Sequence record: MT127620
From: Escherichia phage PGN6866
Strand: one strand, 5' to 3'
Length of the DNA: 64,000 nt
Part shown: piece by piece, positions 8,937-61,687 of the stretch
Numbering within the stretch: position 1 is the first letter of the stretch
Layout of the letters: the number at the start of each line of letters is the position of its first letter
Program-made: the position numbers and the translations under genes
Notes under the pieces: model-generated
What the model was told of the DNA's origin: nothing
Databases searched by the model: none
The model's input: only the letters and a program-made list of their open reading frames with translations

Positions 8937-11900
8937 ATGGCGCTGTATCCAATAAAGTCACTAGGTGCTGTAGGCGTTATCGCTGACCAGGCTCCGACAG
9001 ACTTAGCTCCTAATGCTTTCACTAATGCTATAAATGCTCGATTTGTTGAGCAGAGAGTATTTAAGACGGGGGGCAATGCCCCTCTTTCTTATGTAGATGA
9101 AGATAAGGATTTAACCCCTCTGTCTTTCGTTTCTATGCCTTTCGATTATTATAGCGCAGGTAATAGCTTTCTTGTTGTAGGTACTAATAAGAAGTTATAT
9201 AAACTGACAGATGAAAGCTTGACTGATATTAGCCGTAAGGTTGCTACAGTCACTAAGAAGGCTTCTGCCTCAATTAAGATTTATCCAGTTGTTTCTCAGA
9301 TCGTTCCTAAAGAATCAACTATCTCAATGAACTTCAATCAGACCAAGAATCTAGAGGTTTCTCTTCTCCCTGCTGATGCTAACAATACTGATCTTATTTG
9401 GGAGGTTAGTAACTCATCCTATGGAAGTATTACGGTAGACCCTAGTGACTCTAAACTTGCTACTCTAACATCTTTTGAGAAAGAGGGTAATCTTGTAGTA
9501 ACTATCTCTACTGCCAATGAGTCCGTAGTGGCTCAGATTGCTGTTAATATCATCGATGGTGATTCAGGCATCTTCTTGAGTCAAGACACTGTTACAATTC
9601 GTAAAGGAGGGACTACTACCCTCACGGCTGTTACTGGCAAGACTCCTGTAACTTGGTCCAGCAATAACGCTTCTATTGTATCTGTAACCCCTAACGCCAA
9701 CTCTTTAACTGCTGTCATTACAGCGAATGGAGAAGGTAATGTAACAATCACTGCTGACAACGGAACTAAGACTGCTTCTTGTGAGATTGTTTCTATCCCT
9801 CAGATTGATAGTATCTCTTTAAGCCAGTCAGATGTTACTGTGAGTAGAGGTTCTCAGTACATCTTAACTGCTACCCTTTCTCCTGCTAACGCCCCTAATC
9901 AAAATATTACTTGGACCTCTTCTAATCCAAATATTGCAACAGTATCAGGGACTAGTACACAAGGGACGATCAACGCTCTACTTGCTGGTTTTACTGAGAT
10001 TACAGCTACCACTGAAGAAGGTAACAGAGTTGCTGTCTGTACTGTACGTGTGGATTTAGCTGGAAGGACAATGAGAACAAGTGCTATGGCATTTGCCGCT
10101 CCTGTGTCAGAGTCGGTAGAAACTCAAGAGGAAGAAGTAGTAACTCCTCCTGAAAGTGAAGAGACGGTTTATTTTGCTGAGCCTACATCCGGTATAGATA
10201 CGTCAGGGATGTATGAAGGTAACAACTTCTACGACTACTCTAACGTAAACGATATTGAAGGTTTTGCAAGAGCTTCTTTACTAGCAACTCCTTTGTCATC
10301 CGTAACTTTAGATGTTGTCAGCGCCTCTCTCGATGTTGGTGAGGAAATAGTTATCACAGCTACAGCTTCTCCAGAAGGTGATTATTCTTATCAGTGGTCT
10401 GTTGATAAGACTGGTTATGTTTCTACAACTTCAGTTACTGGTAAATCTATTAAACTGGTTGCTCTTCGTAAAGGAGAGATTAATGTAACATGTACTGTCA
10501 GCCAAATGACTCAGAAGGATTACGATGCTTTTGATGACTACCCTTGGTATCACGCTGTTATCTCTAACTGTGCAGTTGCTACAACTCACTATGAAACTCC
10601 TCAGGTAAAAGAATTCGAATCAGAATACTTTGTAGACCTTCCGGGATGGGGTGAGCAAACAGTTGTTGATAATGATGGAAACCCTTCAGTCAAGAAGTTT
10701 AACTGGAAATGTGAGAGAGTAAGATCTTTTAACAACCGTCTTTTTGCTCTGAATATGAGAGAGGCTAATGCTTCTGGTGTTACCACTAACTACCCGCTTC
10801 GTCTTCGTTGGTCTAACTTTGCCAATGAGAACAAGGCTCCTACACTGTGGGACGACTTTGCCTATGATCGAGTTGTGTCTTCGGACTTAGCTTCTAACAT
10901 CGTAGGGCAGACTCAGGCTCTAGAGAATGGATATGCTGGTTACATTGACCTAGCCGATTCTAATGGTAGCTTGATTGATATCCTACCTCTTAAAGACTAC
11001 TTGTTCGTTTATACAGAGTTTGAAACGTATATTGGTTCTCCGACTAATAACACGTACCAACCTCTAATGTTCAAGAAGCTCTTTAACGACTCTGGTATCC
11101 TTGCTCCTGAGTGTGTGGTTGAAGTAGAAGGTAGCCACTTCGTAGTTACTCAGAATGATGTAATCTTACACAACGGTGCAACCAAGAAGTCAATTGCATC
11201 TAACCGTGTCAAGAACATGCTGATTAACGAGGTGTGTCTGGTTAATCCTCTAGCAACTCGAGTACACTTGCATCAGGATAAGAAAGAAGTTTGGGTTCTG
11301 TACGTAGGTCCGGGAGAACCAAAAGAAAGCTTCGCTTGTACTAAAGCTGCTGTATGGAATTATGAGTTTGATACTTGGTCTTTCCGTACTATCCCATATG
11401 CTCAGTGTATTGGTCTGGTTGATCCTCCTGTTTTAGAAAGAGGTCCAATCTGGTCTGACTTCCAAGAAATCACTTGGGATGACCCATCTATTAAAGAACT
11501 CGTTTGGAGAAAGGATGCAACAAACTTTAGACAGAGGGTTACGATAGTAGGTTCATTCTTGAAGGGATTCTATCAAGTGGATGTAGGTGCTCTTGATTAT
11601 TTCTATGACAGGCTAAACGATGTTGTTATAGAGAAGCCTCTGGAAATGAGGTTGGAGAGGACTGGTATAGATTTTGATAATGTGACGAATGAGTGGAATC
11701 AGAAGCATATTAACAGGTTCCGACCTCAGACAACTGGCTCAGGTACTTACATATTTGAAGCTGGTGGTAGTCAATTCTCAAATGAATATGGACACCCACA
11801 CACATCTAAGACATATACGATCGGTGTTGACAGGCATGTCTCGGTGAGACTGAACCATCCATACCTTTTCTATAATGTTATAGATAATGATGTTAACAGT

Positions 11901-28560: not shown

Positions 28561-28626
28561 AAATAGAGAATTAAGGAATCCTTGATTTAGGTTGTAGGGA
28601 CTCCTAGGGACTTTGATTCTCTATTT
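28561..28626. repeat. 11-bp inverted repeat (aatagagaat / attctctatt) enclosing tandem tagggact direct repeats
   Basis: Perfect IR arms ~45 nt apart; tagggact at 28595 and 28605. Confidence 0.5.
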
Positions 28627-28740
28627 AAAAGAATATTAATTACTTATTACCTAAATAATTAACTAACTTACTTAAACCAAATTCAATAAGAATAGATAAA
28701 AAGATTATTCCTAAGAAAGCTAAAAAGTAAAGGATATAAG

Positions 28741-28917
28741 TTACCATTCAAGTAAACCTTTAAAGTTAGACTGTTCTACTATCCTCTGATAACGAAGATT
28801 AGAATCAGCTTGTTTCTTTAACATCTCATTATATTTATCTCTGATAGAGTCTTTATAAACTACAGGTTCTTTAAATAATGAGATCTTCTTTTTCTCAGAG
28901 TTAGATAGTACATCCAT
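28741..28917 (-). CDS. Small hypothetical protein
   Basis: ORF; start trimmed to internal Met. Confidence 0.35.
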   Translation of the reverse strand: MDVLSNSEKKKISLFKEPVVYKDSIRDKYNEMLKKQADSNLRYQRIVEQSNFKGLLEW

Positions 28918-31149: not shown

Positions 31150-32994
31150 TTAGTGTGTGTGCATCCAGTTAAGTCCAATCTGACAATCAGATGCCAGAGG
31201 ACATTCCATGTTCAGATACTCGCCAGCTTTCTTAACACAAAGCTCAGTGTGCTCTTTGAGTTTCTGTACATCATTACGGTTTACTGAGAATTGACCTTCA
31301 TCGTGCATATCAATTACCTTAGCACAACGAACCTTATCTTTCTCAATCCACTTGTTAAGGAACATCATAGCATATTTCATAACAACAGCACCAGCACATT
31401 GCAGGAGTGTGTTAAGGGCTTTATGAACCATAACCTTACCAGTGGCATCCCGTCTCATTGTAATCTTACGACCATCAACTCCAATCAAGTATCCTTGAGC
31501 AGCTTTCTCTGTCATACGATCAATGAGGATTGCAATACATGGGTTCTCTGCTAAGAAACGTGCTCGCATCACTGAACCTTCGTCAGCCCCACCACCTACA
31601 ATTGAACCAAGCTTAGCGTCACCAGCACCATAGTTGAATGCGTAGATAAACGTCTTAGCGTTGTCACGAGTAGGAAGACCAGCAAGTTTCTGGTTGTGGG
31701 AGTGGATATCACCTTCAAGGAGAATATCACGATACATAATAGCAGAAGCTAAACCACGTTCTGCCAGAGCTTTCTTAGCTGGGTTGTTCTCTTCGATTGC
31801 CTCAGCAAGCATATCCCTACACTCTTTAATGAGGTAGTGAGCGAGCATACGAAGTTCAAGTCCAGAACCATCATACCCTAAGAATACTTCTTTACCAGCG
31901 GGTATGTAATATTTGTAAGCACCTACAGGTTTGTCTTTCTTCCCCGGCTTACCTTTCTCGTAAATTACGTTAGTACCTTTTCGTATATAACAACCATCAG
32001 GAACAACGTTAGTAATAACGAAAGGACGAGAGTGATCACTGTCTGAGTTATAGTCAGACTCAAACAAACTGCGACACTCGTGACCAAACAAACCACGGGA
32101 GGGAATATTAACCACGATACGATGTTTGAATCGAAAAGTTGGCGTAGCGCAGCTGTTAGCTTCTGCCGAAAGTTTACCATCTTCGCGTTCCTTTGCTATA
32201 AGTCCACTGATAAGACCCAGCCTGTGAGCCGCTACAACGCGTCTCTTAAGCAAACTTCCGACACTCCCTAGCTCACCCCCTAACCCTTCTTCAAGAGTCT
32301 CCTCGAGGTTTGTAGGAGCTGTAGGCCACTTGTTTGATGTGGCTAGTGCTTTCTTAATCTCATCAAACGTTACAGGATTACGTCGATTAGGGTTTAATCC
32401 CAAACCAAATACGTAAGCCTTCATATAGTTCTTAGTTTTAAACCTAAAATGCTTTTCTAAGAACTTCTTAATATCAGCGTCAACCATCTCGGCTGTCTGT
32501 TTTTGCTTAGCATTACCTCGCATCCAAGCAGTATACCATGCTTGGTATGTTCCATACTTTCTCATATCTTTCTTAATTTCGAAAGTATTCCAAGGCTTCT
32601 TAGATACGTTAAACTCTGGAGGAAGAAAGCCCTCATCCATAAGAGCTTCTTTAACTCGTGCATCTTTCGATGGGTCAAAGTCTACGTATTCGACACAGGT
32701 GAAAGCTCCACCAATATCTTCTCTCTTCAGCCCAACCCTATCACAATAGGCTTGAGGCCACTTCTGTAAAGCTCCAGACTTCTTAAACGGCTTCATATAA
32801 GTAGAGCCATCTAATCTCATCTTAGGTAAGAGAGGAATCAGTTCTTTGTCAATATTAACAATAATCTCTTTAAGGAGGTGAACATACCACCGAGCATTTC
32901 TTCGGTTGAAACTCACTCCGTGCTTTGCTTGCTTAGAGATTATATCAGCGACAGTCATCTCTGTCAAAAATGGAAGAGCGTCCGGGTTGCTCAC
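31150..32994 (-). CDS. DNA polymerase, family A (polymerase domain only)
   Basis: Motif A DGSGLELR, motif B K..N...YG, motif C VIDMHDE; no exonuclease motifs. Confidence 0.85.
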   Translation of the reverse strand: MSNPDALPFLTEMTVADIISKQAKHGVSFNRRNARWYVHLLKEIIVNIDKELIPLLPKMRLDGSTYMKPFKKSGALQKWPQAYCDRVGLKREDIGGAFTCVEYVDFDPSKDARVKEALMDEGFLPPEFNVSKKPWNTFEIKKDMRKYGTYQAWYTAWMRGNAKQKQTAEMVDADIKKFLEKHFRFKTKNYMKAYVFGLGLNPNRRNPVTFDEIKKALATSNKWPTAPTNLEETLEEGLGGELGSVGSLLKRRVVAAHRLGLISGLIAKEREDGKLSAEANSCATPTFRFKHRIVVNIPSRGLFGHECRSLFESDYNSDSDHSRPFVITNVVPDGCYIRKGTNVIYEKGKPGKKDKPVGAYKYYIPAGKEVFLGYDGSGLELRMLAHYLIKECRDMLAEAIEENNPAKKALAERGLASAIMYRDILLEGDIHSHNQKLAGLPTRDNAKTFIYAFNYGAGDAKLGSIVGGGADEGSVMRARFLAENPCIAILIDRMTEKAAQGYLIGVDGRKITMRRDATGKVMVHKALNTLLQCAGAVVMKYAMMFLNKWIEKDKVRCAKVIDMHDEGQFSVNRNDVQKLKEHTELCVKKAGEYLNMECPLASDCQIGLNWMHTH

Positions 32995-34510: not shown

Positions 34511-34825
34511 TTATGAGCTTAAAGCTCCTTTGCGTGCTCCAGCTGCTTTTCCAGCTCGATCACCACTTTTGCCGCCGTTTGAACGGTTTGAGCTGACTGA
34601 TTCAACACGTAAGTTGCTTGACGCATTAGAGCCTCCAGACTTGACAGCTCGTTTGTGTCCAACGTCTTTACCTCTGACAGCAGCTTTTCCATCGCGCTTT
34701 TCAACGATGCGACGTGCACGGTGGCGCTGAGCATCTCCGCTCTTGCTCCCAATTCCCGTTTCACCGCGCTTGATCGCAGTCCTTCTTTCTTGTGCATAGT
34801 CTCTTTTTCCTACATGATCTGCCAT
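34511..34825 (-). CDS. Basic Gly/Lys-rich low-complexity protein
   Basis: RBS aggag, TAATG coupling to upstream gene; locally GC-rich. Confidence 0.45.
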   Translation of the reverse strand: MADHVGKRDYAQERRTAIKRGETGIGSKSGDAQRHRARRIVEKRDGKAAVRGKDVGHKRAVKSGGSNASSNLRVESVSSNRSNGGKSGDRAGKAAGARKGALSS

Positions 34826-35154
34826 TAGATTTCTCCTGATTCTCTTTGATTAAAGGTGTGGATGGCGTGGCAATTAGCACACAATATCCTGCACTTCCTC
34901 ATCTCTTCTTTTACTTGAGATAAAGATCTGGTGTGCCCTTTGGAGAGTTCGAATGACTTAGTTAATGGATTTAAATGATCAAACTGAAGAGCAGATGCGT
35001 GGCCCTTAAAGCCACACTCAGAGCATCCATAGAATGTTTTAACTCTACGGATAAAAGCTAGTTGCCTAACTCTTCTTTTCTCGTTATCTGCCTTTCTCTT
35101 ATCTCTATTTCCTGGGTCGGCCCATCTACACGAGTCATTGCAAAACCTCTGCAT
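34825..35154 (-). CDS. HNH endonuclease
   Basis: C.EC......FDHLNP...LC.NCH motif. Confidence 0.7.
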   Translation of the reverse strand: MQRFCNDSCRWADPGNRDKRKADNEKRRVRQLAFIRRVKTFYGCSECGFKGHASALQFDHLNPLTKSFELSKGHTRSLSQVKEEMRKCRILCANCHAIHTFNQRESGEI

Positions 35155-35242
35155 TATATACTTCGTTACAAATGGTACCTTACAGGTTTCACATTCCTTG
35201 TGGTATGTTGCTATTTGGACCCCCTTGTGTGAACTATAAGAA

Positions 35243-35692
35243 TCAACTCTCTTCTAGTATAATCCTGTACATTGCTTCCTGAGCATCTTTCATATCTACA
35301 TATGGACCAAGCACCTCACTATCTTTTCTGATGAACCAATCACCTTCTTTGAATATCAGAGATACGTGAACATCTTTATTATTTGCTTTGACTGCTCGCC
35401 CCCATGCTGGGTTATGTCGGGATAAATTATCAATATGACAATTATCAGTGCGCCCATCCAGATGGTGTAAATAAGATTGAGGCCACTGGCCTGTCTCTTT
35501 ATACCATACGGCTTTCTTCAATTCAACAATGCCACATGGTAGTCCTATGTATAGGATATTAGGCTGTAAGCTAAAATTATACCACTTAGATGTGAAAGGG
35601 ATTAGAGGTTCCCTTTTGGTGAAAAACATCGGCCCCTCTCGAATGTATTCTAGACTATCTATACACTTCAAAATCTTTTCACTATAAAGCAT
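35243..35692 (-). CDS. HNH homing endonuclease with AP2-like DNA-binding domain
   Basis: HHLDGRTDNCHIDNL (HNH_3-type) motif plus C-terminal AP2-like segment. Confidence 0.7.
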   Translation of the reverse strand: MLYSEKILKCIDSLEYIREGPMFFTKREPLIPFTSKWYNFSLQPNILYIGLPCGIVELKKAVWYKETGQWPQSYLHHLDGRTDNCHIDNLSRHNPAWGRAVKANNKDVHVSLIFKEGDWFIRKDSEVLGPYVDMKDAQEAMYRIILEES

Positions 35693-36432
35693 TAACTGTT
35701 TACCTTTTCCATAGCTTTAACAATAGCTTTACAGAAACCAGAACGAACAATGTCATCTGATTCGCCGTCTACAATCTCAGCAAACTCATACAGATCGTGT
35801 TCATCAATAAAGTTAGTAGCCCAAGTAAGACCGCTCTCACGACCACGCATATCATGCTGGTTAGTATCACCCATGCAGAACAGCTGAGAGGTTTCTCCCA
35901 ATCGAGTCATGATTGAGAAGGCTTCATCTTTAGTGGTGTTCTGGAACTCATCAACAATAACAATAGCATCATTGAAAGAACGACCACGGAGATATTCCAG
36001 AGGTACGAACTCAATGTTACTGTTACCGAGCTGGCATTCATAGAACCCCTTACCGTATCGCTGAGTAATAACATCAATGATAGGCATCAGGTACGGTTCA
36101 AACTTCTCACGCATTCCTCCCGGAAGTAACCCAAGAGAGTTGCCCATGCCGACAGAAGGGCGACTCAGAATGATCTTCTGAATCTTACCGCTCTTCAGTG
36201 CATCAATAACTGTGGAAGTGATTACAAAGGTCTTACCACAGCCCGCAGGAGCGTCTGTGAACACAACTTGTTTAGTCTTAATAGCATTGAGTAGCTCAGA
36301 CTGAAACTGGTTCTGAGGGACTACAGGCTTTGCTAAAACCACCTCTTCATACTCTCGCTTACCTTTACGAGTAACAAGTGCTTCCCGACGAAGGTCTTTC
36401 CGTGATTCTTTCCGTGATTGACGACGACTCAT
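35692..36432 (-). CDS. phoH: PhoH-like ATPase
   Basis: Walker A APAGCGKTF and overall PhoH pattern. Confidence 0.85.
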   Translation of the reverse strand: MSRRQSRKESRKDLRREALVTRKGKREYEEVVLAKPVVPQNQFQSELLNAIKTKQVVFTDAPAGCGKTFVITSTVIDALKSGKIQKIILSRPSVGMGNSLGLLPGGMREKFEPYLMPIIDVITQRYGKGFYECQLGNSNIEFVPLEYLRGRSFNDAIVIVDEFQNTTKDEAFSIMTRLGETSQLFCMGDTNQHDMRGRESGLTWATNFIDEHDLYEFAEIVDGESDDIVRSGFCKAIVKAMEKVNS

Positions 36433-36614
36433 TTACGCTCTCCAATTTCTTCGTAATGACACTCAGTAGTTAAGCAGTCTTTACAGATTGCTGTATAAAC
36501 CCTGACGTTAGTAAATCGTTTGTTCTTCCCTTTGGTTGGAGAGCCTTTGGCAAGCTCTCTGATAACCTTGTTACTTAAGTGAAGGTTTGTTCCTTCACAT
36601 TTAGAGCACTTCAT
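36429..36614 (-). CDS. Small Cys-containing hypothetical protein
   Basis: ORF. Confidence 0.5.
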   Translation of the reverse strand: MKCSKCEGTNLHLSNKVIRELAKGSPTKGKNKRFTNVRVYTAICKDCLTTECHYEEIGERK

Positions 36615-36930
36615 GGTTCATATCTTTATGAATCCTGTAAACAGCTGTCGCCATACAAGCAACAGCCTCGTTGTGTGGGAGGTGCATCCCTGTAGAACCA
36701 TCCCAATCTTTGAACTCATTGTCAAAGACTCCGGTAGGCTCTGGATATAGAGCTTGCAGCTCCACTAGATCATTAGCAACTTGTTGCCATTTATCATCAG
36801 ACCAGATAGGGTCATCCAACCAGTAATACAAATAGGAATGGATGATCAATTGCCTTCTATGCCGATTTATTACTTCAGCGGGACTTATCTCACTTCCATT
36901 TGAAGTCCTAAATGTATTACTGTCAATCAT
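36601..36930 (-). CDS. Hypothetical protein (109 aa)
   Basis: ORF. Confidence 0.5.
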   Translation of the reverse strand: MIDSNTFRTSNGSEISPAEVINRHRRQLIIHSYLYYWLDDPIWSDDKWQQVANDLVELQALYPEPTGVFDNEFKDWDGSTGMHLPHNEAVACMATAVYRIHKDMNHEVL

Positions 36931-37112
36931 TTTACAACCTTAAATTTGAATGTTGTTGGGTGGTAATAGTGCAATCTATTGATAGTGTGCTTTGTTTCAA
37001 GGTATATCCTGCAAGAGTGGCACATGACATGGGTCAGACCAGTCACAGGGTTGGGTTTGAAGTTAGCGATAGGTTTCTCTTTCTTACAGAAGCTACAGAC
37101 TTTCTTTTCCAT
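36927..37112 (-). CDS. Small Zn-ribbon-like protein
   Basis: CSFC...CHSC motif; start trimmed to internal Met. Confidence 0.45.
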   Translation of the reverse strand: MEKKVCSFCKKEKPIANFKPNPVTGLTHVMCHSCRIYLETKHTINRLHYYHPTTFKFKVVK

Positions 37113-37326
37113 CTTTTCTCCAGTGGTCAACGAATTGCTGAAACACTTTACGGTCAAATGTGAAATTACGAGCAATTCCGCATTCTCTAAAAGTGGCAGG
37201 CATATAATCTACATCACCTTCAGATGTATGACCATAGACTTGAATAAGCTTCTTAATCTTATCCTTCTCTCTTCGAGGAAGCATTCTAAATGCCTCCTGA
37301 ATATCTGTAATATGTTTGATTTTCAT
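37093..37326 (-). CDS. Small hypothetical protein
   Basis: ORF. Confidence 0.5.
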   Translation of the reverse strand: MKIKHITDIQEAFRMLPRREKDKIKKLIQVYGHTSEGDVDYMPATFRECGIARNFTFDRKVFQQFVDHWRKDGKESL

Positions 37327-37338
37327 CAGAAATTCCTG

Positions 37339-37473
37339 CTAATCCTCTGGATTATGAGAACAGCAATACTCACATACTCCACAACAAGGGCAAATTTCTA
37401 CACTTGGGTCATATGCATCATCAACTGTCATCCCACACTTGGTGCAGAACACATCGTCATCTTCTTCCAACAT
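37339..37473 (-). CDS. Small Cys-rich protein (44 aa)
   Basis: Hand-translated; TAATG coupling. Confidence 0.35.
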   Translation of the reverse strand: MLEEDDDVFCTKCGMTVDDAYDPSVEICPCCGVCEYCCSHNPED

Positions 37474-48230: not shown

Positions 48231-50261
48231 TTAACCTCTATTCAATGAACATTTAGGAGAATTACAATAAACTTGATTCATAGAACCAAGCGTACAACTT
48301 TCAGCATCGCGCCACGGAATCTGCTTAAAACACTCTGAGCAGTATCCGAGGGTTGACCACATGGCTTTGGTGAAGTCAGTGCTTCGGTTTCCGTCGAAGC
48401 TGACAACAGTTTTGCGGAGAGCTGTTCGTGATTCAGGAAACACACCTGCTTTCTCAGCAGGTTCCTCCTTTTTTGGCTTAGTTGAGATTGCAAAAATACT
48501 GTTGCTACGTTTCTCAACATAAGCATCAACAACATCCTCCAGAGTGATGCCTGTCTGTTTCGCTGAGGAAGGTAATACAGTCATACGACCAATCATATCT
48601 TCAGTTACACGTAAAGCAAATTCAGGACGACGGGCGTTTGTTGTATCTGTTGCTTTAATCCATACATAACCATCTTTGATCGTAGCATTAGACACTTTCT
48701 TCTTTACTTCTACAGCGCAGACTTTACAGATATCTTCACCACGAAGACGACTAAGTTCATCATCGAACTCATTCTCTGTTTTAACTTCACCGCAGATTTC
48801 ACAAACACCAATAGGAGTTTCCTCCTCTTCTTCCTCTTTAGGTTTAGTCAAACCTTCCAGACATTCAGGATGCCAATAGCACTGATATGCGAAGACTGCT
48901 TTAGGTGCATCCTTCCAATCAATGTGTTTGTCACAACCACCACAATCACCATGAGAGTGTGCTTCCCAGAATTTACGAGTGATAGTAACGCCATTCTTGT
49001 TGACGAAACTATCATTCATATCAAAAGGGATATCATCATCGAAGTCAGCAGTAGTTGACTCAGGCTCCTTTTTCTCCAGAGATGGGTCAACAAAACGACC
49101 TGCTGTGATCACTAAACGGACCATAGCATTGACTTCGGAGATGCAGGATACTGTCCCACGGTAAACGATCTTAGGGTCTTTCAGTGCGTCCTGATAAGCC
49201 TTAATATCTACGTTATGAACATCACCTTCGATGTACTCTTGAGACTTCTCATCGTAGATATAACCAATCATCTTACCACGAGAAGGAACAGCACCGGCAG
49301 TTGCATAAGGGACAAACTCATGCGGAGTGATTTCAACAGTCATATCACGACGGATATCAATGTTTCGATCGCTTGCGATTTTGTTTTGACTTACCACTGC
49401 GTTTCTTCGACGAACGTCTGCCGCTGTCACACCCGGCTTCGTGTCGTAAGGATTGCTTGTACTGCTTTTTGAGGAACTTTGATAGTTGCTTTGGCTGTAG
49501 TTGTTCGAGTAATAACTGCCCCAACGATTGGCTACCGTAAAAACCGGAAGCTCGTGGGCGACCTCTTCAACCAGAGTCATACTATTGTTTGACATATCAA
49601 AGATATATTCTGTACCAACTTTACATTCAAAATGCTCATCAATACGGTTCTTGTGAGATCTAGAACGCTTCAGAATCCACATCAACATATCTTCTTCAGA
49701 AGCACCAAACCAATCCCTGTTACAACGTGCGAGGTGGAATGGACGCTCTTCGTTACGGATGATATGAAGACGGTTATCAGAAGCATCATGCCAGATTAAG
49801 GTGAAAGCACCATCCAGCTTTTGAATAGTCTCTGCTGCACCAATAGTGTTAATAGAGTGGCAGATGTTCTCACTGTCTACCTCGAAGTTTTTGCTGTCAG
49901 GTAACAGATCTTGGTCCATCAAGGTTCCGTTATGAACCAGAGTGATGTTACCATGTTGGAAAGGATGGGCGTTCTTGGCGTTAACTGCACCTTTCGTTGC
50001 ATGACGACTGTGACCAACAATCCATGAAGGTGCTACAGTGTAAGCTGTTTCACCAGTGGTGTGCTTCTTGTACTCATCTTGTAGGATGAATGCGAAAGAA
50101 GGAAGAGCTTCTTTATAAGTGAAGACTTCCTTAGTGCTTTTACGCTGACCAAAGATACCGGAGGAGTGTTGTCCTCGGAATACTCCAGCATAAAAGAGTT
50201 GGTTGAATACGTCTAAATCAGTGCTTGACAGATTACCGCCAGCTAATACGATGCCACAAAT
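48231..50261 (-). CDS. Class II glutamine amidotransferase (Ntn-hydrolase) domain protein with C-terminal Zn-ribbon modules; apparent AUU start
   Basis: Frame upstream of track ORF reads (I)CGIVLAGG...RGQHSSGI...HSRHATKG...HNGTL; three CxxC...CxxC clusters C-terminally; only SD-preceded codon before the Cys is ATT at 50259-50261. Confidence 0.6.
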   Translation of the reverse strand: MCGIVLAGGNLSSTDLDVFNQLFYAGVFRGQHSSGIFGQRKSTKEVFTYKEALPSFAFILQDEYKKHTTGETAYTVAPSWIVGHSRHATKGAVNAKNAHPFQHGNITLVHNGTLMDQDLLPDSKNFEVDSENICHSINTIGAAETIQKLDGAFTLIWHDASDNRLHIIRNEERPFHLARCNRDWFGASEEDMLMWILKRSRSHKNRIDEHFECKVGTEYIFDMSNNSMTLVEEVAHELPVFTVANRWGSYYSNNYSQSNYQSSSKSSTSNPYDTKPGVTAADVRRRNAVVSQNKIASDRNIDIRRDMTVEITPHEFVPYATAGAVPSRGKMIGYIYDEKSQEYIEGDVHNVDIKAYQDALKDPKIVYRGTVSCISEVNAMVRLVITAGRFVDPSLEKKEPESTTADFDDDIPFDMNDSFVNKNGVTITRKFWEAHSHGDCGGCDKHIDWKDAPKAVFAYQCYWHPECLEGLTKPKEEEEEETPIGVCEICGEVKTENEFDDELSRLRGEDICKVCAVEVKKKVSNATIKDGYVWIKATDTTNARRPEFALRVTEDMIGRMTVLPSSAKQTGITLEDVVDAYVEKRSNSIFAISTKPKKEEPAEKAGVFPESRTALRKTVVSFDGNRSTDFTKAMWSTLGYCSECFKQIPWRDAESCTLGSMNQVYCNSPKCSLNRG

Positions 50262-50341
50262 TTTCTAATCCACCTGAAGGGTAAACCCTTTCATCTAATT
50301 AACCTTTAAATTGTGCCCCCTTTGTCAGAGGCACCCATTGA

Positions 50342-51445
50342 TTACAGCGCTTGTTCTAACTGATTTTCCAGATGGTCTGGAATGTACCCTGTGATATTGC
50401 TATCACTGTGACCTGACTCACGTAGTAAGTCAAAAATAGCACGGATACGTTGTTCTGGAGCGTGTCTTACTTGAGATAGGTCTGCTGTACGAAGCATAAC
50501 CAAAATCTCTTGATACAAGTTGTTAGCGTTCCCTCGGACATAACCAAGGAATCCATAGAAGTCTGACATAAGACGTAAGTCAACAAGAACATCTCCGTTG
50601 GAGTTGGTTCGACGTAAACGAATACGACCAGACTGTTCTACTTCATGAGAACGGCAATACAAAACATCACGGGCCATACAATATCCTGAATGCAAATCAG
50701 ATTCATCCAGATTGTAATCCAGAGGAAGGTAAGGAAGCATTGGGGCAAATCGTACAGTATTTAAGTGCTCAATAAACTGATCATTGCTCATATCTGCGTT
50801 ATCTAAAGCCAGCTTCTTCAACATCAAGAAGCGGTTAACCAGATTGAGAAGTTGACCACGTTTCCACTTAGGCTCACTGATACGGAACTCAATTGAACCG
50901 TATTGGGCAAGTGGCAGAAGGTTCAGAGATGTATATTTATCCCATGAACGAACCAGACGGTTGAAGAATTCTTCACCATCGTAGTTAAATGCGTCAGAGG
51001 CATTCATTACCTGTGCTTGTACCACTGCAAACGCAGGACAGAAATTGCTACGGTAACGATGGTAGCCTGAACACTTGAACAACATCTTTTCATAGAAGGT
51101 CCAAGCAAGGATGGTCTTCTTGAGGATATTACTATCAGCATCCCTCATATCCATATGAACGTGAGTAGAGCAACGCCAAGTCCCCTCGGCGTGCGATTCA
51201 GCTACTGCTTCACTCAGGTTGTTGATAGCGTCTAACAACTCCTGTCCGTTGTAAGGTCGTGAACATACCATTTCACAACCGTTACGCAGGGAACCATCCT
51301 CTGTGCAATCCCACATATCTGCTTCGATATGTTCAGAACCTTCGAGTTCAAGTTCAATACCGACACCGCACTGAAGTGCAATTGAACTATGCGCCTCAGT
51401 TAAACGACCTTCTCGATATCCAAAAGTTTGCGCTACAGTTGTCAT
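50342..51445 (-). CDS. GS-fold amidoligase (glutamate-cysteine-ligase-like)
   Basis: GVGIELELEG and CSTHVHMD motifs. Confidence 0.6.
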   Translation of the reverse strand: MTTVAQTFGYREGRLTEAHSSIALQCGVGIELELEGSEHIEADMWDCTEDGSLRNGCEMVCSRPYNGQELLDAINNLSEAVAESHAEGTWRCSTHVHMDMRDADSNILKKTILAWTFYEKMLFKCSGYHRYRSNFCPAFAVVQAQVMNASDAFNYDGEEFFNRLVRSWDKYTSLNLLPLAQYGSIEFRISEPKWKRGQLLNLVNRFLMLKKLALDNADMSNDQFIEHLNTVRFAPMLPYLPLDYNLDESDLHSGYCMARDVLYCRSHEVEQSGRIRLRRTNSNGDVLVDLRLMSDFYGFLGYVRGNANNLYQEILVMLRTADLSQVRHAPEQRIRAIFDLLRESGHSDSNITGYIPDHLENQLEQAL

Positions 51446-52059
51446 AACGAATCCACCAACGTAATATTATAATTGCTAAGGTTTTCAGAGATGTGATGAA
51501 AATGTTCCAGAAGTCGCATCGGTTGTTGACCGTAAGAGTCACGAGGCGCTTCCAGATCTACCTGACCTACCAGTGCACCTTTATAATGCACTTTACCATC
51601 TGTAGGATTGATGTAAATATAACGAGTAACCAATCCATCAAATTCAGGATTGAACAGACTGTAAACCATTTCACCAGAGATTGAACGACCAATCCCCGGA
51701 GCGTTTCGAATCTTGTTACCCATCAAACCCTTCGCTCTCTGACGAACAGGATTGATATGAGTCCAGCTTACAGTGTTACCGTTATGGAACAGATAACCAA
51801 CATCAGGTGATTCGAGAATCAAGGTTGGGTCGAACACTGGAATATTCATCGTAGTGTTTCGGAGATTCCCATGCTCGTTCTTGTACCACTGCTCTACAAC
51901 AAAATACAGAGCCTGTTCTGCTTCATGCGAGAAGTCATCGCTGCGGAAGTTACCGCTCTGCTCAACACCAATCACAAAACACGGAAGGTTGATATTGCCT
52001 GCTCGTTTAGCAATCCATGTACCATTATAGTAATGAGAAAAATCAGCTACTAAGCTCAC
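51442..52059 (-). CDS. Hypothetical protein in ligase cluster (205 aa)
   Basis: ORF overlapping amidoligase start by 4 nt. Confidence 0.55.
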   Translation of the reverse strand: MSLVADFSHYYNGTWIAKRAGNINLPCFVIGVEQSGNFRSDDFSHEAEQALYFVVEQWYKNEHGNLRNTTMNIPVFDPTLILESPDVGYLFHNGNTVSWTHINPVRQRAKGLMGNKIRNAPGIGRSISGEMVYSLFNPEFDGLVTRYIYINPTDGKVHYKGALVGQVDLEAPRDSYGQQPMRLLEHFHHISENLSNYNITLVDSL

Positions 52060-52068
52060 GATAACCTC

Positions 52069-52875
52069 TTATGCTACCTGAAGGAGTTTGATCTGCTGGT
52101 CAGCTTCTTTAACGTTGTTCCCGTTAATGATTTCATGAAGCTTCTCAATCGGAAGGCGAGAGTGCAATGCCATCAGAGTGGACATATCACACTGCTGAAC
52201 AACCTTGTCAACCTGATCGTAAACAAACTTACGGTTTTCACGATCACTAATCCAGAAGTTAGACAGAGAACGGTATTCAATACCATAGTCTTTATAACGG
52301 ATTGCAGATGCTTTACCGTAGAGTTCTTTACGGCGAGTATCTTTGTCCATAATTACTGCTGGGAGAGACAGGAAGTAGTCACACAGCACACCCAGCATCA
52401 TCTGAGTTTGCAGAGTGATATCCAAAGCACCAACTACGCCAAGATGTACGTGACCACCGGCAGTACGAAGTCCCTTATTCTGAGAAGTCGGGGACGGGTT
52501 TTTCTGACCAGTGAAGGCGTTGAAATCAGGAGTGCACCCGAAGATGAACGCTGATTCATTAAAGGTCTTCATCTCTTCTTCAGTGAAGATGTGAGAGCTA
52601 ACACCCGGAGCTGTTTCCATGTCCAGCTTGTTCAGGACATTATTGGTGAGATCAATACCACGTTGCATGTTATCGTTAAACGCTTCAAAACCGCTCTGTG
52701 GGTCAATATCAAACTCAGCCAGTACGTTGTCCTCTTGGAGACGAACATCCTTAGCCAGAGCGATCTTATCGTCCTTAGAGCAGCCTAATAAACCGGCTAC
52801 AGAAGTGATGATACCACTGCTAGTACGAACAAACATTTCAGGGTCAGAGCCGATAAGGAATTTGCGCTTAGTCAT
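52069..52875 (-). CDS. Hypothetical protein, possibly a second amidoligase-like enzyme
   Basis: LIGSDPEMF and TAGGHVHLGV resemble divergent E-x-E / HxH motifs; weak. Confidence 0.5.
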   Translation of the reverse strand: MTKRKFLIGSDPEMFVRTSSGIITSVAGLLGCSKDDKIALAKDVRLQEDNVLAEFDIDPQSGFEAFNDNMQRGIDLTNNVLNKLDMETAPGVSSHIFTEEEMKTFNESAFIFGCTPDFNAFTGQKNPSPTSQNKGLRTAGGHVHLGVVGALDITLQTQMMLGVLCDYFLSLPAVIMDKDTRRKELYGKASAIRYKDYGIEYRSLSNFWISDRENRKFVYDQVDKVVQQCDMSTLMALHSRLPIEKLHEIINGNNVKEADQQIKLLQVA

Positions 52876-53839
52876 TGTAATACTCCACTAGTTCAGAAAA
52901 GAGAGATGAGATTGTGTTACCAACTTCTTCAAGAGTAAGACCGGAATCTGCTCCAGTTCTTTGAATCAGTCGGGCTGTAAAGTTTTGTACTGTAATGTTT
53001 CCCAACTTGTCGTCTATTGCTTCACGTTTGTGACCATAACAGTTGGACCAGAGTCTTAACCACTCTGACATTGTTTCATACTCGTCCGGGTCTTGATCTT
53101 TAGCACGAGCAAATCTTCGTAAGGCATCTTGGTTATGGTTACGAACATAACCATTCTCGTTGTCGCCAACACCGAAGGGGTTTTGAACCCATACTTGCTT
53201 CGTGTATTCATCAGAGTCTACAACCAAAGGAAGGAATGCTGCTGCTGACATATTGTTGTTAATAACAATAGAGGTGCTCTCGCTACTACCATTGGCTCTT
53301 CCTCGTTGAGACCATCCACCGAAGAAGTCACGACCCAACCCAGCTAACACTAGAGCGATGCCGATGCGTTTACGCTTCAGCCACTCTTCCCTGTCTTCAA
53401 TTCCTTCTGCTAGGAAATCCATTCCACGATATTGCCCTTCCAGAATACTACGGAAGAGCATAAGTCCTGTGAAGATCTGATCTGCTGGATGCTCACGAAG
53501 ATTGACAGCAACACTGTTCGCTGAAGTGATAGTAAATACATCACGATAGCAAGACATAGAATTCATAATGTCTGCTGTTTCAATCAAGTTCTTTTCAATA
53601 TCAGATGGAACATGACCATGAAAAGAGTGGGTCCAGTAATTCAACATCTCCAATTGCAAGTTAATGTCACGGTTGAAGCGTTTATGGCGCCCATCTTCCA
53701 TTACACATTCGTCATTAACATCATATACGACTTGACCTTGCATGTAGTTGTGGATACCGAAGCACCCACGACCTAAGAACTTCTGTTCCCCTAAATCCTG
53801 TTGAAGATTAAGAGGTACGATCGTTGTGGAGATTGACAT
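52868..53839 (-). CDS. Hypothetical protein in ligase cluster (323 aa)
   Basis: ORF. Confidence 0.55.
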   Translation of the reverse strand: MSISTTIVPLNLQQDLGEQKFLGRGCFGIHNYMQGQVVYDVNDECVMEDGRHKRFNRDINLQLEMLNYWTHSFHGHVPSDIEKNLIETADIMNSMSCYRDVFTITSANSVAVNLREHPADQIFTGLMLFRSILEGQYRGMDFLAEGIEDREEWLKRKRIGIALVLAGLGRDFFGGWSQRGRANGSSESTSIVINNNMSAAAFLPLVVDSDEYTKQVWVQNPFGVGDNENGYVRNHNQDALRRFARAKDQDPDEYETMSEWLRLWSNCYGHKREAIDDKLGNITVQNFTARLIQRTGADSGLTLEEVGNTISSLFSELVEYYND

Positions 53840-58199: not shown

Positions 58200-58559
58200 A
58201 TTAAAAGGTTGTTCCACATTTACCCTAAAGTTATTGGGGAGTACACTAGCTCTGGGCCACGCTGTAGATATCGGCCTACCTTCCACAGCTAATCAGCTAA
58301 TGTACTCTCCTAATAGTTTATGAATAGGGGGAGGGGACGAATCCTCCCTTATCCTATTAATTAATATTGCATGTAAGACCTAACAATCGGTTGCCTTTGT
58401 AGGAATAAGCGTTATGCTAATCCAGCACTAAACTCCCGCCCCCTTAGTGGGCTGGGTTATTAAAGGGTAACGCCCTTATGGGCTAGTTACATGAATGTTA
58501 GTTTGATAGGAGATCTGAAGTCCTATCTCAAAGGACTCTCGTAAGAATCCTTCACGATA

Positions 58560-58691
58560 TTACTTATTCATCTCTCGTCGGCTATCTCTCCAAGCCAACC
58601 AAGTGTAGGTTTTCAGTTCTTCAAAGTCTTCTGGAGAGAATAGATACTCTTTGAAGGTGTTTCCAAACCACTCTAAAAATTCTTTAGTCAT
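58560..58691 (-). CDS. Small hypothetical protein (43 aa)
   Basis: Hand-translated; TAATG coupling to upstream gene. Confidence 0.3.
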   Translation of the reverse strand: MTKEFLEWFGNTFKEYLFSPEDFEELKTYTWLAWRDSRREMNK

Positions 58692-60000: not shown

Positions 60001-60076
60001 TGGTGCGCCCTACAGGACTCGAACCTGTAACCAATAGCTTAGAAGGCTACTGCTCTATCCATTGAGCTAAGAGCGC
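60001..60076 (-). tRNA. tRNA-Arg (anticodon UCU), CCA encoded
   Basis: Manual fold: acceptor GCGCTCT/AGGGCGC, D-arm GCTC/GAGC, anticodon stem GTAGC/GCTAT with loop CTTCTAA, T-arm ACAGG-TTCGAGT-CCTGT. Confidence 0.85.
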
Positions 60077-61573: not shown

Positions 61574-61678
61574 CACCGGATGTTCGAGCAAGCTCTCCCT
61601 AGCGGTGTGGCATATGCCTGAATTAATAAGTTAATGAGGAACACCCTCACATAGCCCTCTGATAAACACAAGGGCTAT
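61574..61678 (-). repeat. Conserved composite intergenic element, copy B
   Basis: See copy A at 55686-55799. Confidence 0.6.
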
Positions 61679-61687
61679 AAGTCGGTG

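Follow-up and report, generated by a model that had tools for sequence, protein, structure and literature searches.

Probable AUU initiation of a coliphage class II glutamine amidotransferase gene and a possible homing-endonuclease origin of its leader

To our knowledge, infC, which codes for IF3, and pcnB are the only genes of Escherichia coli with confirmed initiation at AUU. In both of them an AUU placed behind a Shine-Dalgarno (SD) sequence lowers expression (PMC3592434; 10.1101/063800), and starts at the infC junction are divided about equally between reinitiation and de novo events (PMC3592434). AUU and AUC starts reached 1-2% of AUG in one reporter system, with an N-terminal Met (10.1101/063800), and were 4- to 8-fold below AUG in another (PMC3592434). 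In Enterococcus faecalis, the single chromosomal gene ebpA has a rare, experimentally proven ATT start, which attenuates expression and which annotation pipelines had replaced with a downstream ATG (PMC4447247). In this study, we report a similar start in the class II glutamine amidotransferase (GAT) gene on the minus strand of the Escherichia phage PGN6866 (MT127620), analysed as a stretch of 64,000 nucleotides (nt) that we call the window. Guided by its SD, translation of this gene very probably begins at the AUU at 50261-50259. This reading of the sequence is supported, although it falls short of proven.

The window gene shares with infC and pcnB the arrangement of an AUU behind an SD, and its UAG-AAA-AUU mirrors the UAA-GGU-AUU of thrS-infC (PMC3592434). 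It also combines the marks of that type of gene, namely the absence of an in-frame canonical start, an AUU at SD distance, and the conservation of both the ATT and the downstream coding sequence. It differs from them in that its AUU has to adjoin the codon of a catalytic Cys, recurs in a considerable part of a phage family and seems to have been delivered by a mobile element, while the autoregulation of infC by IF3 has no obvious counterpart here. The window gene has been mis-called in the same way as ebpA (PMC4447247). Unlike ebpA, which has neither the constraint of an N-terminal nucleophile nor a link with a mobile element, it has the former and possibly the latter.

Start site of the amidotransferase gene

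The source of the window is a phiEco32-like coliphage (Kuravirus, Gordonclarkvirinae), and a 901-nt query around the site recovered 96 phage records, 58 of them with 95-99% identity. The features of the gene start, all on the minus strand (-), are the following:

48231..50261 (-): full-length GAT gene, 676 codons plus stop, homologue of phiEco32 phi32_83
50259..50261 (-): ATT, inferred initiation codon (AUU); decoding as formylmethionine (fMet) and its removal would expose Cys1
50256..50258 (-): TGT, catalytic N-terminal nucleophile Cys; C1-G2-I3-V4 is invariant in an alignment of homologues (A1)
50269..50275 (-): SD sequence AGGTGGA, with a 7-nt spacer to the ATT
50265..50267 (-): in-frame TAG, two codons upstream of the ATT (TAG AAA ATT)
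49920..49922 (-): TTG, followed by ATG at 49919-49917; first canonical in-frame start in the list of open reading frames (ORFs), 113 codons after the ATT
50277..50290 (-): hairpin AAGGG-TTTA-CCCTT with a 5-bp stem, 1 nt upstream of the SD and inside the mini-ORF
50265..50294 (-): mini-ORF ATG AAA GGG TTT ACC CTT CAG GTG GAT TAG (MKGFTLQVD-stop), 9 codons, in frame with the GAT gene

At the start the minus strand reads ...AAGGGTTTACCCTT C AGGTGGA TTAGAAA ATT TGT GGC ATC GTA TTA GCT GGC GGT, which translates as stop-K-I-C-G-I-V-L-A-G-G. The first-pass annotation had placed the codon of the Cys that opens the GAT-II motif at 50256-50258, an ATT directly before it at 50259-50261 and an SD-like AGGTGGA seven nt upstream, and all of these were located on the minus strand (TGT at 50258-50256; SD at 50275-50269, at exactly 7 nt). 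It was also right about an in-frame TAG before the ATT, but the two are not adjacent, as an AAA codon intervenes; the ORF list agrees with its statement that no in-frame ATG, GTG or TTG lies between this stop and the TTG at 49922. The only sense codons between the stop and the Cys codon are AAA and ATT, and ATT, at SD distance, is the sole near-cognate start. The best duplex of the SD with the 3' end of 16S rRNA is formed by CAGGUGG (−7.2 kcal/mol).

The 35-mer GGGTTTACCCTTCAGGTGGATTAGAAAATTTGTGG, which spans the ATT, was 100% identical in 96/96 Gordonclarkvirinae records, and its ATG version had no perfect match among them. Given its presence in all 96 genomes, the ATT is not a sequencing accident. 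The alignment with homologues, which had been proposed as a check, showed that distant ones (Privateer, GAP52, PKM.Hi.22.6, SeKF_80, LAh_9, LUZ24 and 7-11-like phages) carry ATG directly before TGY (MCGIV).

By its predicted function, the N-terminal region is a working class II amidotransferase domain. Pfam analysis of the GAT protein (675 aa) gave GATase_6 (1.1e-14, 55 bits against a cut-off of 27) together with GATase_7 and GATase_4, and this domain, of the N-terminal nucleophile (Ntn) type, occupies about residues 2-225. A profile built from nine homologues matched in PDB the Ntn domains of GlmS, PurF and AsnB (1xff, 1ecb, 6gq3). Residues R85, T88, N110, G111 and D128 of the window protein are invariant in A1 and align with R73, T76, N98, G99 and D123 of GlmS (1xff). 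The Cys1 nucleophile and the conserved Arg, Asn-Gly and Asp are thus as in GlmS, PurF, AsnB and GltB. A domain of this class, as identified by Pfam, profile and residue alignment, needs Cys as residue 1, and in the homologues Cys is indeed the first residue after the initiator, with ATG, ATT or ATC followed by TGY-GGN. The cellular class II enzymes have either ATG-TGY or a cleaved propeptide, whereas the window gene has ATT-TGT. In addition, GlmS, PurF, AsnB and GltB carry a SIS, PRTase or synthetase domain after the Ntn domain, and the window protein carries none of them. Pfam gave no match in residues 230-675 (the C-terminal ~450 aa) and found in the 675-aa protein neither of the two C-terminal SIS domains expected in GlmS. 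This leaves the RefSeq name 'L-glutamine-D-fructose-6-phosphate aminotransferase' without support, and it must be considered a misnomer. The C-terminal ~450 aa (window 48231-49586) are rich in Cys, with zinc-ribbon-like CxxC...CxxC pairs (HGDCGGCDKH...CYWHPEC; CEICGEV...CKVC; CSECFKQ...CNSPKC).

The substitution pattern of this region was determined by comparing the window with EP335 and KBNP1711 (Nieuwekanaalvirus) and with EK010 and SU7 (Suseptimavirus). Over the 112 codons from the Cys to the TTG at 49922, the ratio of nonsynonymous to synonymous substitutions (dN/dS) was 0.065-0.10, with a dS of 1.4-2.6 at which synonymous sites are saturated, and third positions held 55-63 of about 85-97 differences. 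The next 108 codons after this TTG showed the same pattern. Therefore, the region upstream of TTG 49922 is translated in the GAT frame. The absence of a functional Ntn domain, which the first-pass annotation had named as one case that would speak against its proposal, is contradicted by this purifying selection and by the conserved catalytic residues. Its conclusion that the sequence argues for a rare AUU initiation finds support in the layout, the dN/dS values, the ATT of all 96 records and the ATG-TGY of distant homologues.

As an annotation, the AUU start is not new, since it has been in GenBank from 2008: the coding sequence (CDS) starts at the ATT in phiEco32 (EU330206; ABY52884, 676 aa), in its RefSeq copy and in SU10 (KM044272). 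However, the CDS reaches the first 37 nt of the gene in only 9 of 60 public records sampled. In EP335 and in the inspected records of Paul, KBNP1711, SU7 and BUCT695, it runs from a downstream ATG, GTG or TTG. Starts of this kind, among them the TTG at 49922 or similar codons chosen by gene callers and in several GenBank records, cost the protein its catalytic Cys, and the loss reaches as many as 113 residues in some records. Our literature searches, which did not cover the phiEco32 genome paper, gave nothing relevant on ATT or AUU starts in phage amidotransferases. Annotation pipelines should permit ATT and ATC starts for these genes, and the correct protein sequence of GAT is required for any biochemistry on the enzyme.

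Two points weigh against initiation at the AUU. The proteome of a concentrated SU10 phage preparation contained the GAT protein with 9 peptides and the ATP-grasp protein with 6 (PMC4281155, Table 2), and the S1 Table of the same paper gives 677 aa for the former. The mass listed for GAT, 63.8 kDa, is that of a 563-aa truncated model, the full-length protein having 76.1 kDa. Since the search database held the truncated model, N-terminal peptides could not appear (the N-terminal tryptic peptide of the 676-aa model is CGIVLAGGNLSSTDLDVFNQLFYAGVFR) and these data give no protein-level support for the N-terminus. The second point is that two out-of-frame codons, UUG (50259-50257) and GUG (50257-50255), share nucleotides with the start site and might rival it for the SD.

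In the proposed mechanism, the AGGUGG(A) SD would position the 30S subunit so that the initiator tRNA reads the near-cognate AUU as fMet. Deformylase and Met-aminopeptidase would then uncover Cys1, the nucleophile required at the free N-terminus in every class II amidotransferase. From the published work on other genes, expression from AUU would be expected to lie from several-fold to about 100-fold under that from AUG and to be sensitive to IF3, ppGpp and temperature, as for infC and pcnB. On these published data, the lower expression suggested by the first-pass annotation is plausible.

One alternative is termination-reinitiation, which may add to de novo initiation or replace it, and which we consider rather improbable. 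In this case the mini-ORF (50294-50265) would be translated, with termination at the UAG and a restart 3 nt further on at the AUU. Exactly 3 nt separate the stop of this in-frame mini-ORF from the AUU, the same geometry as in thrS-infC (UAA GGU AUU), where the share of reinitiation is considerable as indicated above (PMC3592434). As is usual for coupled genes, the SD of the GAT gene falls within the closing codons of the mini-ORF. The SD of the mini-ORF itself is weak (AAGG, 8 nt). BUCT695 keeps the mini-ORF, but its ATG there has no SD; in L179, a relative with a homologous leader, a long upstream ORF terminates at the corresponding TAG, but the ATG of the mini-ORF is missing. In the other leaders with ATT or ATC before the Cys codon (hereafter ATY), no upstream ORF ending near the start was found.

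Read-through of the UAG from the mini-ORF ATG at 50294, which is in frame with the GAT gene, would give a 12-residue propeptide (MKGFTLQVDxKI) to be removed autocatalytically, and propeptide processing is known among Ntn amidotransferases such as B. subtilis PurF. This alternative is effectively excluded. In L179 two consecutive stops, TAG TAA, stand directly before the ATT and rule it out there, and the window holds no suppressor tRNA, its sole tRNA being a tRNA-Arg (anticodon TCT; 60001-60076, minus strand). Moreover, the 12 propeptide codons are frozen at the nucleotide level, with no synonymous variation, unlike a coding sequence, and other ATY loci have no in-frame start upstream. As for an N-terminal truncation, in which the true product would run from TTG 49922 or ATG 49919 (562-563 aa), downstream of an Ntn region in decay, it can be discarded in spite of the preference of gene callers and several GenBank records for such starts and of the 63.8 kDa of the SU10 table, because the supposedly untranslated part shows the low dN/dS given above; furthermore, its catalytic residues are intact, no convincing SD precedes 49922 and that mass is the database value of the truncated model and not a measured one.

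ATT and ATC starts in the amidotransferase family

Relatives of the N-terminal domain were collected from IMG/VR, metagenomes and genomes. Among 131 distinct homologues, the codon before the Cys was ATG in 104, ATT in 19, ATC in 4, GTG in 2 and TTG in 2; when similar leaders were merged, the numbers were 86, 12, 4, 2 and 2, respectively. Thus, about 20% of the family have ATT or ATC directly before the Cys, and all of these cases show an SD at a distance of 4-8 nt. Among the ATY loci from IMG/VR and metagenomes were L047, L049-L053, L059, L068, L074, L080, L086, L114, L179, L180 and L184. An in-frame canonical start upstream was absent in 14/16 ATY loci, and the SD of ATY leaders was somewhat stronger than that of ATG leaders (median −8.0 vs −6.35 kcal/mol, p = 0.016).

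A stable hairpin abutting the SD and ending 11-21 nt before the start was present in 11/15 ATY leaders vs 7/85 ATG leaders (Fisher p = 2e-7, although this and the other Fisher value given below overstate the significance since the ATY loci are not phylogenetically independent). With one leader added, the count was 12/16 ATY, against a mean of 0.97 in shuffled leaders. The stem sequences of these hairpins were all different. Four pairs of related loci differ in the start codon:

ATT L086 / ATG L079: protein identity 97%
ATT L047 / ATG L135: protein identity 85%
ATT L179 / ATG L101: protein identity 83%
ATT L080 / ATG L067: protein identity 74%

A hairpin insertion of ~20 nt beside the SD distinguishes the ATT member in three of the four pairs. 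The invariant AUU of the coliphage gene, together with the ~20% of the family with AUU or AUC behind a hairpin and SD, offers a natural series for studies on non-AUG starts.

The scan of genome contigs yielded only 7 loci, mostly on phage-like contigs inside bacterial assemblies, and therefore provides no bacterial control set. One actinobacterial assembly, that of Herbiconiux daphne (NZ_JANLCJ01), has short scaffolds (L176-L179) with different phage-type GAT genes with TTG, GTG and ATT starts, which are probably phage contamination and not host genes. Our literature searches turned up no earlier account of ATT and ATC recurring within the family, of the hairpin that accompanies them or of the association with homing endonucleases, and these three observations appear to be new.

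Homing-endonuclease cassettes and the origin of the leader

The free-standing homing-endonuclease genes (HEGs) of T4-like phages (seg, mob) and the mobE-split nrdA of Aeromonas phage Aeh1 combine an HNH gene, a promoter of its own and a conserved target that codes for an active site; signals of the insert keep the host gene working and the flanks are co-converted (PMC2988022, PMC3045599). The cassettes found beside GAT genes can be likened to them in all these aspects. Unlike those systems, the GAT cassette lies between codons 1 and 2 and swaps the start codon for a non-ATG one, and in the window only its 3' tail would be left.

The ORF directly upstream of GAT was compared in IMG/VR loci with 2.5-kb flanks (60 ATG and 16 ATY). 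It was an amidoligase in 49 of the ATG loci, peptidase_C26-like in 8 and something else in 3, with no endonuclease in any of them, whereas 4 of the ATY loci (L222, L224, L257 and L223) had an HNH_3 homing endonuclease (4/16 vs 0/60; Fisher p about 0.0014). The endonucleases of L222, L224 and L257 belong to one family, while that of L223 is HNH_3 plus AP2. The C-terminal half of the former family is found upstream of GAT in L179, and a decayed HNH copy (GDCWLWTGCINSDGYP... plus an HTH_3 domain) in BUCT695. The BUCT695 remnant (Aeromonas phage, NC_070977, L011, about 705-930) is unannotated and frame-broken and separates the GAT gene from a gamma-glutamylcysteine-ligase-like gene; the GAT CDS of this record is called from a downstream ATG and thereby loses Cys1. 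In the Zobellviridae phage T2S1 the copy is intact (ORF59, annotated as endonuclease; tblastn and motif match) and is followed by a hairpin, an SD and TTG-TGT. In total, the start was non-ATG in 7/7 HEG-adjacent GAT genes (L222, L224, L257, L223, L179, BUCT695 and T2S1). In HEG-bearing loci the hairpin stands at or beside the HEG stop codon, and the leader types AGGAGATGAGAAAATT, GGAGGATAGT... and AAGGAACTATTATC each occur both with and without an HEG.

The most direct comparison is that of L250 (ATG, without HEG) with L257 (ATT, with HEG), whose flanks have 91-94% DNA identity around an insert of ~490 nt and whose GAT N-terminal domains share 97% protein identity. The insert lies between ATG and TGT (L257:1998-2500 vs L250:2493-2505). 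The uninterrupted site of the L250 type reads ...TATAATGTGTGGAATCG.... The left junction of L257 is ...AAAGGTACATCTATA-ATGTGTGG, in which the old SD survives, and then come a TAG, the cassette's own promoter with perfect boxes (TTGACA-17 nt-TATAAT), the SD AAGGAG and an HEG ORF of 145 aa; the right junction is ...GGAACCTAAA (ending in CCTAAA)-ATT-TGTGGAATCG. The cassette therefore separates the ATG from the Cys codon and brings the ATT along. A left-junction remnant (old SD plus ATGTGTGG) was found only in L257, and neither upstream of the window leader nor in the older HEG-bearing loci. No insertion polymorphism of the L250/L257 kind was seen in the lineage of the window.

In alignment A2, the window leader corresponds to the sequence that immediately follows the HEG stop of BUCT695 and L179. 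The shared parts are TTTAAA, which holds the HEG stop codon in BUCT695, the hairpin, the SD, GATTAG, ATT and TGYGG, and the hairpin stem is retained both in BUCT695 (loop TTAA) and in L179 (with one added A-T pair, AAGGGA-TTTA-TCCCTT). Within the subfamily, this leader coincides with a block of exceptional conservation:

50254..50311 (-): 58-nt island identical in Kuravirus and Suseptimavirus, including the first 8 nt of the CDS

The copy of Nieuwekanaalvirus is nearly identical, being exact from AAAGG on, and in the comparison with SU7 the island is the second-longest exact match over 48 kb outside two mosaic blocks.

These likenesses make it probable that the window leader is the retained 3' untranslated tail of an HEG cassette whose ORF was deleted. 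Under this proposal, a free-standing HNH HEG cassette would target the extreme 5' end of phage GAT-II genes, entering between the ATG and the Cys codon and supplying a surrogate non-ATG start that keeps Cys at position 2. The Gordonclarkvirinae would later have lost the endonuclease ORF, while the stop-codon region, the hairpin, the SD and the ATT stayed and are now fixed and invariant. If true, a selfish element would have rewritten the start codon of its host gene and left a functional regulatory scar.

Apart from the non-independence of the ATY loci, several facts tell against this origin. No HEG of the GAT-targeting family was matched in the six frames of the window, nor at the site in the 96 relatives, so that the leader can be at most a relic. 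With the endonuclease absent from this site in all of these relatives, the proposed origin depends on a similarity of about 50 nt to two phages (the A2 similarity spans only about 55 nt). Finally, drift is what one would expect of a relic, yet these 58 nt stay frozen among genera with saturated synonymous sites. It is possible that this freezing reflects further selection on overlapping signals (mini-ORF, hairpin, SD, start and perhaps a promoter) or gene conversion.

That same freezing, between genera with dS > 1.4, implies function and would suit an explanation in which the hairpin, SD and AUY form a control of translation that is selected in its own right and adjusts the output of a glutaminase that could do harm, the HEGs merely preferring to land beside such leaders. 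The persistence of the hairpin-ATY association despite the complete turnover of stem sequences agrees with it, as does the lack of an HEG in about half of the ATY loci. The L250/L257 pair points in the opposite direction, because the pre-insertion allele has ATG and the ATT came with the insert. The same can be said of the non-ATG start of all seven HEG-adjacent genes, of the occurrence of every leader type with and without HEG and of the position of the hairpin at the HEG stop codon. Accordingly, we see this autonomous control as unlikely.

With regard to the cassettes in general, we tentatively propose, as a possibility with somewhat less than an even chance of being correct, that HNH cassettes specialised on the first GAT codons (ATG, insertion point, TGY GGN ATH GT) carry a portable hairpin-SD-non-ATG module that restarts the host gene and may protect the invaded allele from the nuclease. 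The AUU and AUC starts, including the window leader, would then be co-opted footprints of invasion. It is attractive to think that the cassette start is never ATG because this avoids remaking the nuclease target. The hairpin might stack on the SD helix, stabilise the mRNA or insulate GAT from the translation of the HEG.

In SU7 (L182) there are two HNH genes that the window does not have, at 11423-11899 and 32468-32938. SU7_50, which is flanked on either side by a CDS annotated as DNA polymerase, belongs to the GAT-targeting HNH family (hmmsearch 6e-12), and SU7_85 lies inside the amidoligase cluster.

Neighbouring genes and other features of the window

The GAT gene forms part of a conserved early-gene cluster (window 46594-53839), which contains the following features:

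46594-47787: ATP-grasp gene, beside GAT-II
50313..50334 (-): terminator-like hairpin GTGCCTCT...GGGGGCAC, after the amidoligase gene; it differs from genus to genus
50342..51445 (-): Amidoligase_2 gene, phi32_84 homologue, upstream of the GAT gene
after Amidoligase_2: gene for a 205-aa protein of unknown function
52069-52875: COOH-NH2 ligase type 2 gene
after COOH-NH2 ligase type 2: gene for a 323-aa protein of unknown function

The gap between the amidoligase and GAT genes is only 74-79 nt in Gordonclarkvirinae, and the amidoligase gene of the window ends 80 nt before the ATT. In the ATG-type relatives the upstream gene usually overlaps or abuts the GAT start (gap −13 or −1), and this overlap of 1 or 13 nt with the amidoligase gene suggests translational coupling there.

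Other signals were sought in the leader. A permissive Rfam scan of 50100-50450 gave only chance-level matches, folding of the whole leader was not significant (z = −1.75), and the leader motif had no second occurrence elsewhere in the window. Two candidate structures, a long-range stem of the minimum free energy fold (GGUUAAU/AUUAGCU plus GAUG/CAUC) and an alternative stem that would sequester the SD (GGUUUACC/GGUGGAUU), were dropped, as both are broken in BUCT695. The promoter consensus of the phage sigma factor gp36 is AATGTA centred at −11.5 (PMC12276001, PMC4281155). No such promoter is claimed for the leader, in which Kuravirus reads AAGGTT, although AATGTA occurs upstream in BUCT695, GAP52 and others; matches to TAATGTATA were at chance level window-wide. 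A plus-strand candidate for a sigma-70-like promoter (50225-50252), which would lie antisense to the leader, was likewise rejected, with 1 match against 0.7 expected and a −35 box that is not conserved in other genera.

Elsewhere in the window, two stretches (28577-28847 and 34676-37452) are near-identical to Suseptimavirus SU7, with exact matches of up to 203 nt in an otherwise diverged genome, which looks like a recent mosaic exchange in the PhoH/ligase region. Two intergenic islands, at 58503-58566 (64 nt) and 61635-61684 (50 nt), are identical to SU7 amid a diverged early region and may be regulatory elements; the second one holds a ATAGCCCT...AGGGCTAT hairpin.

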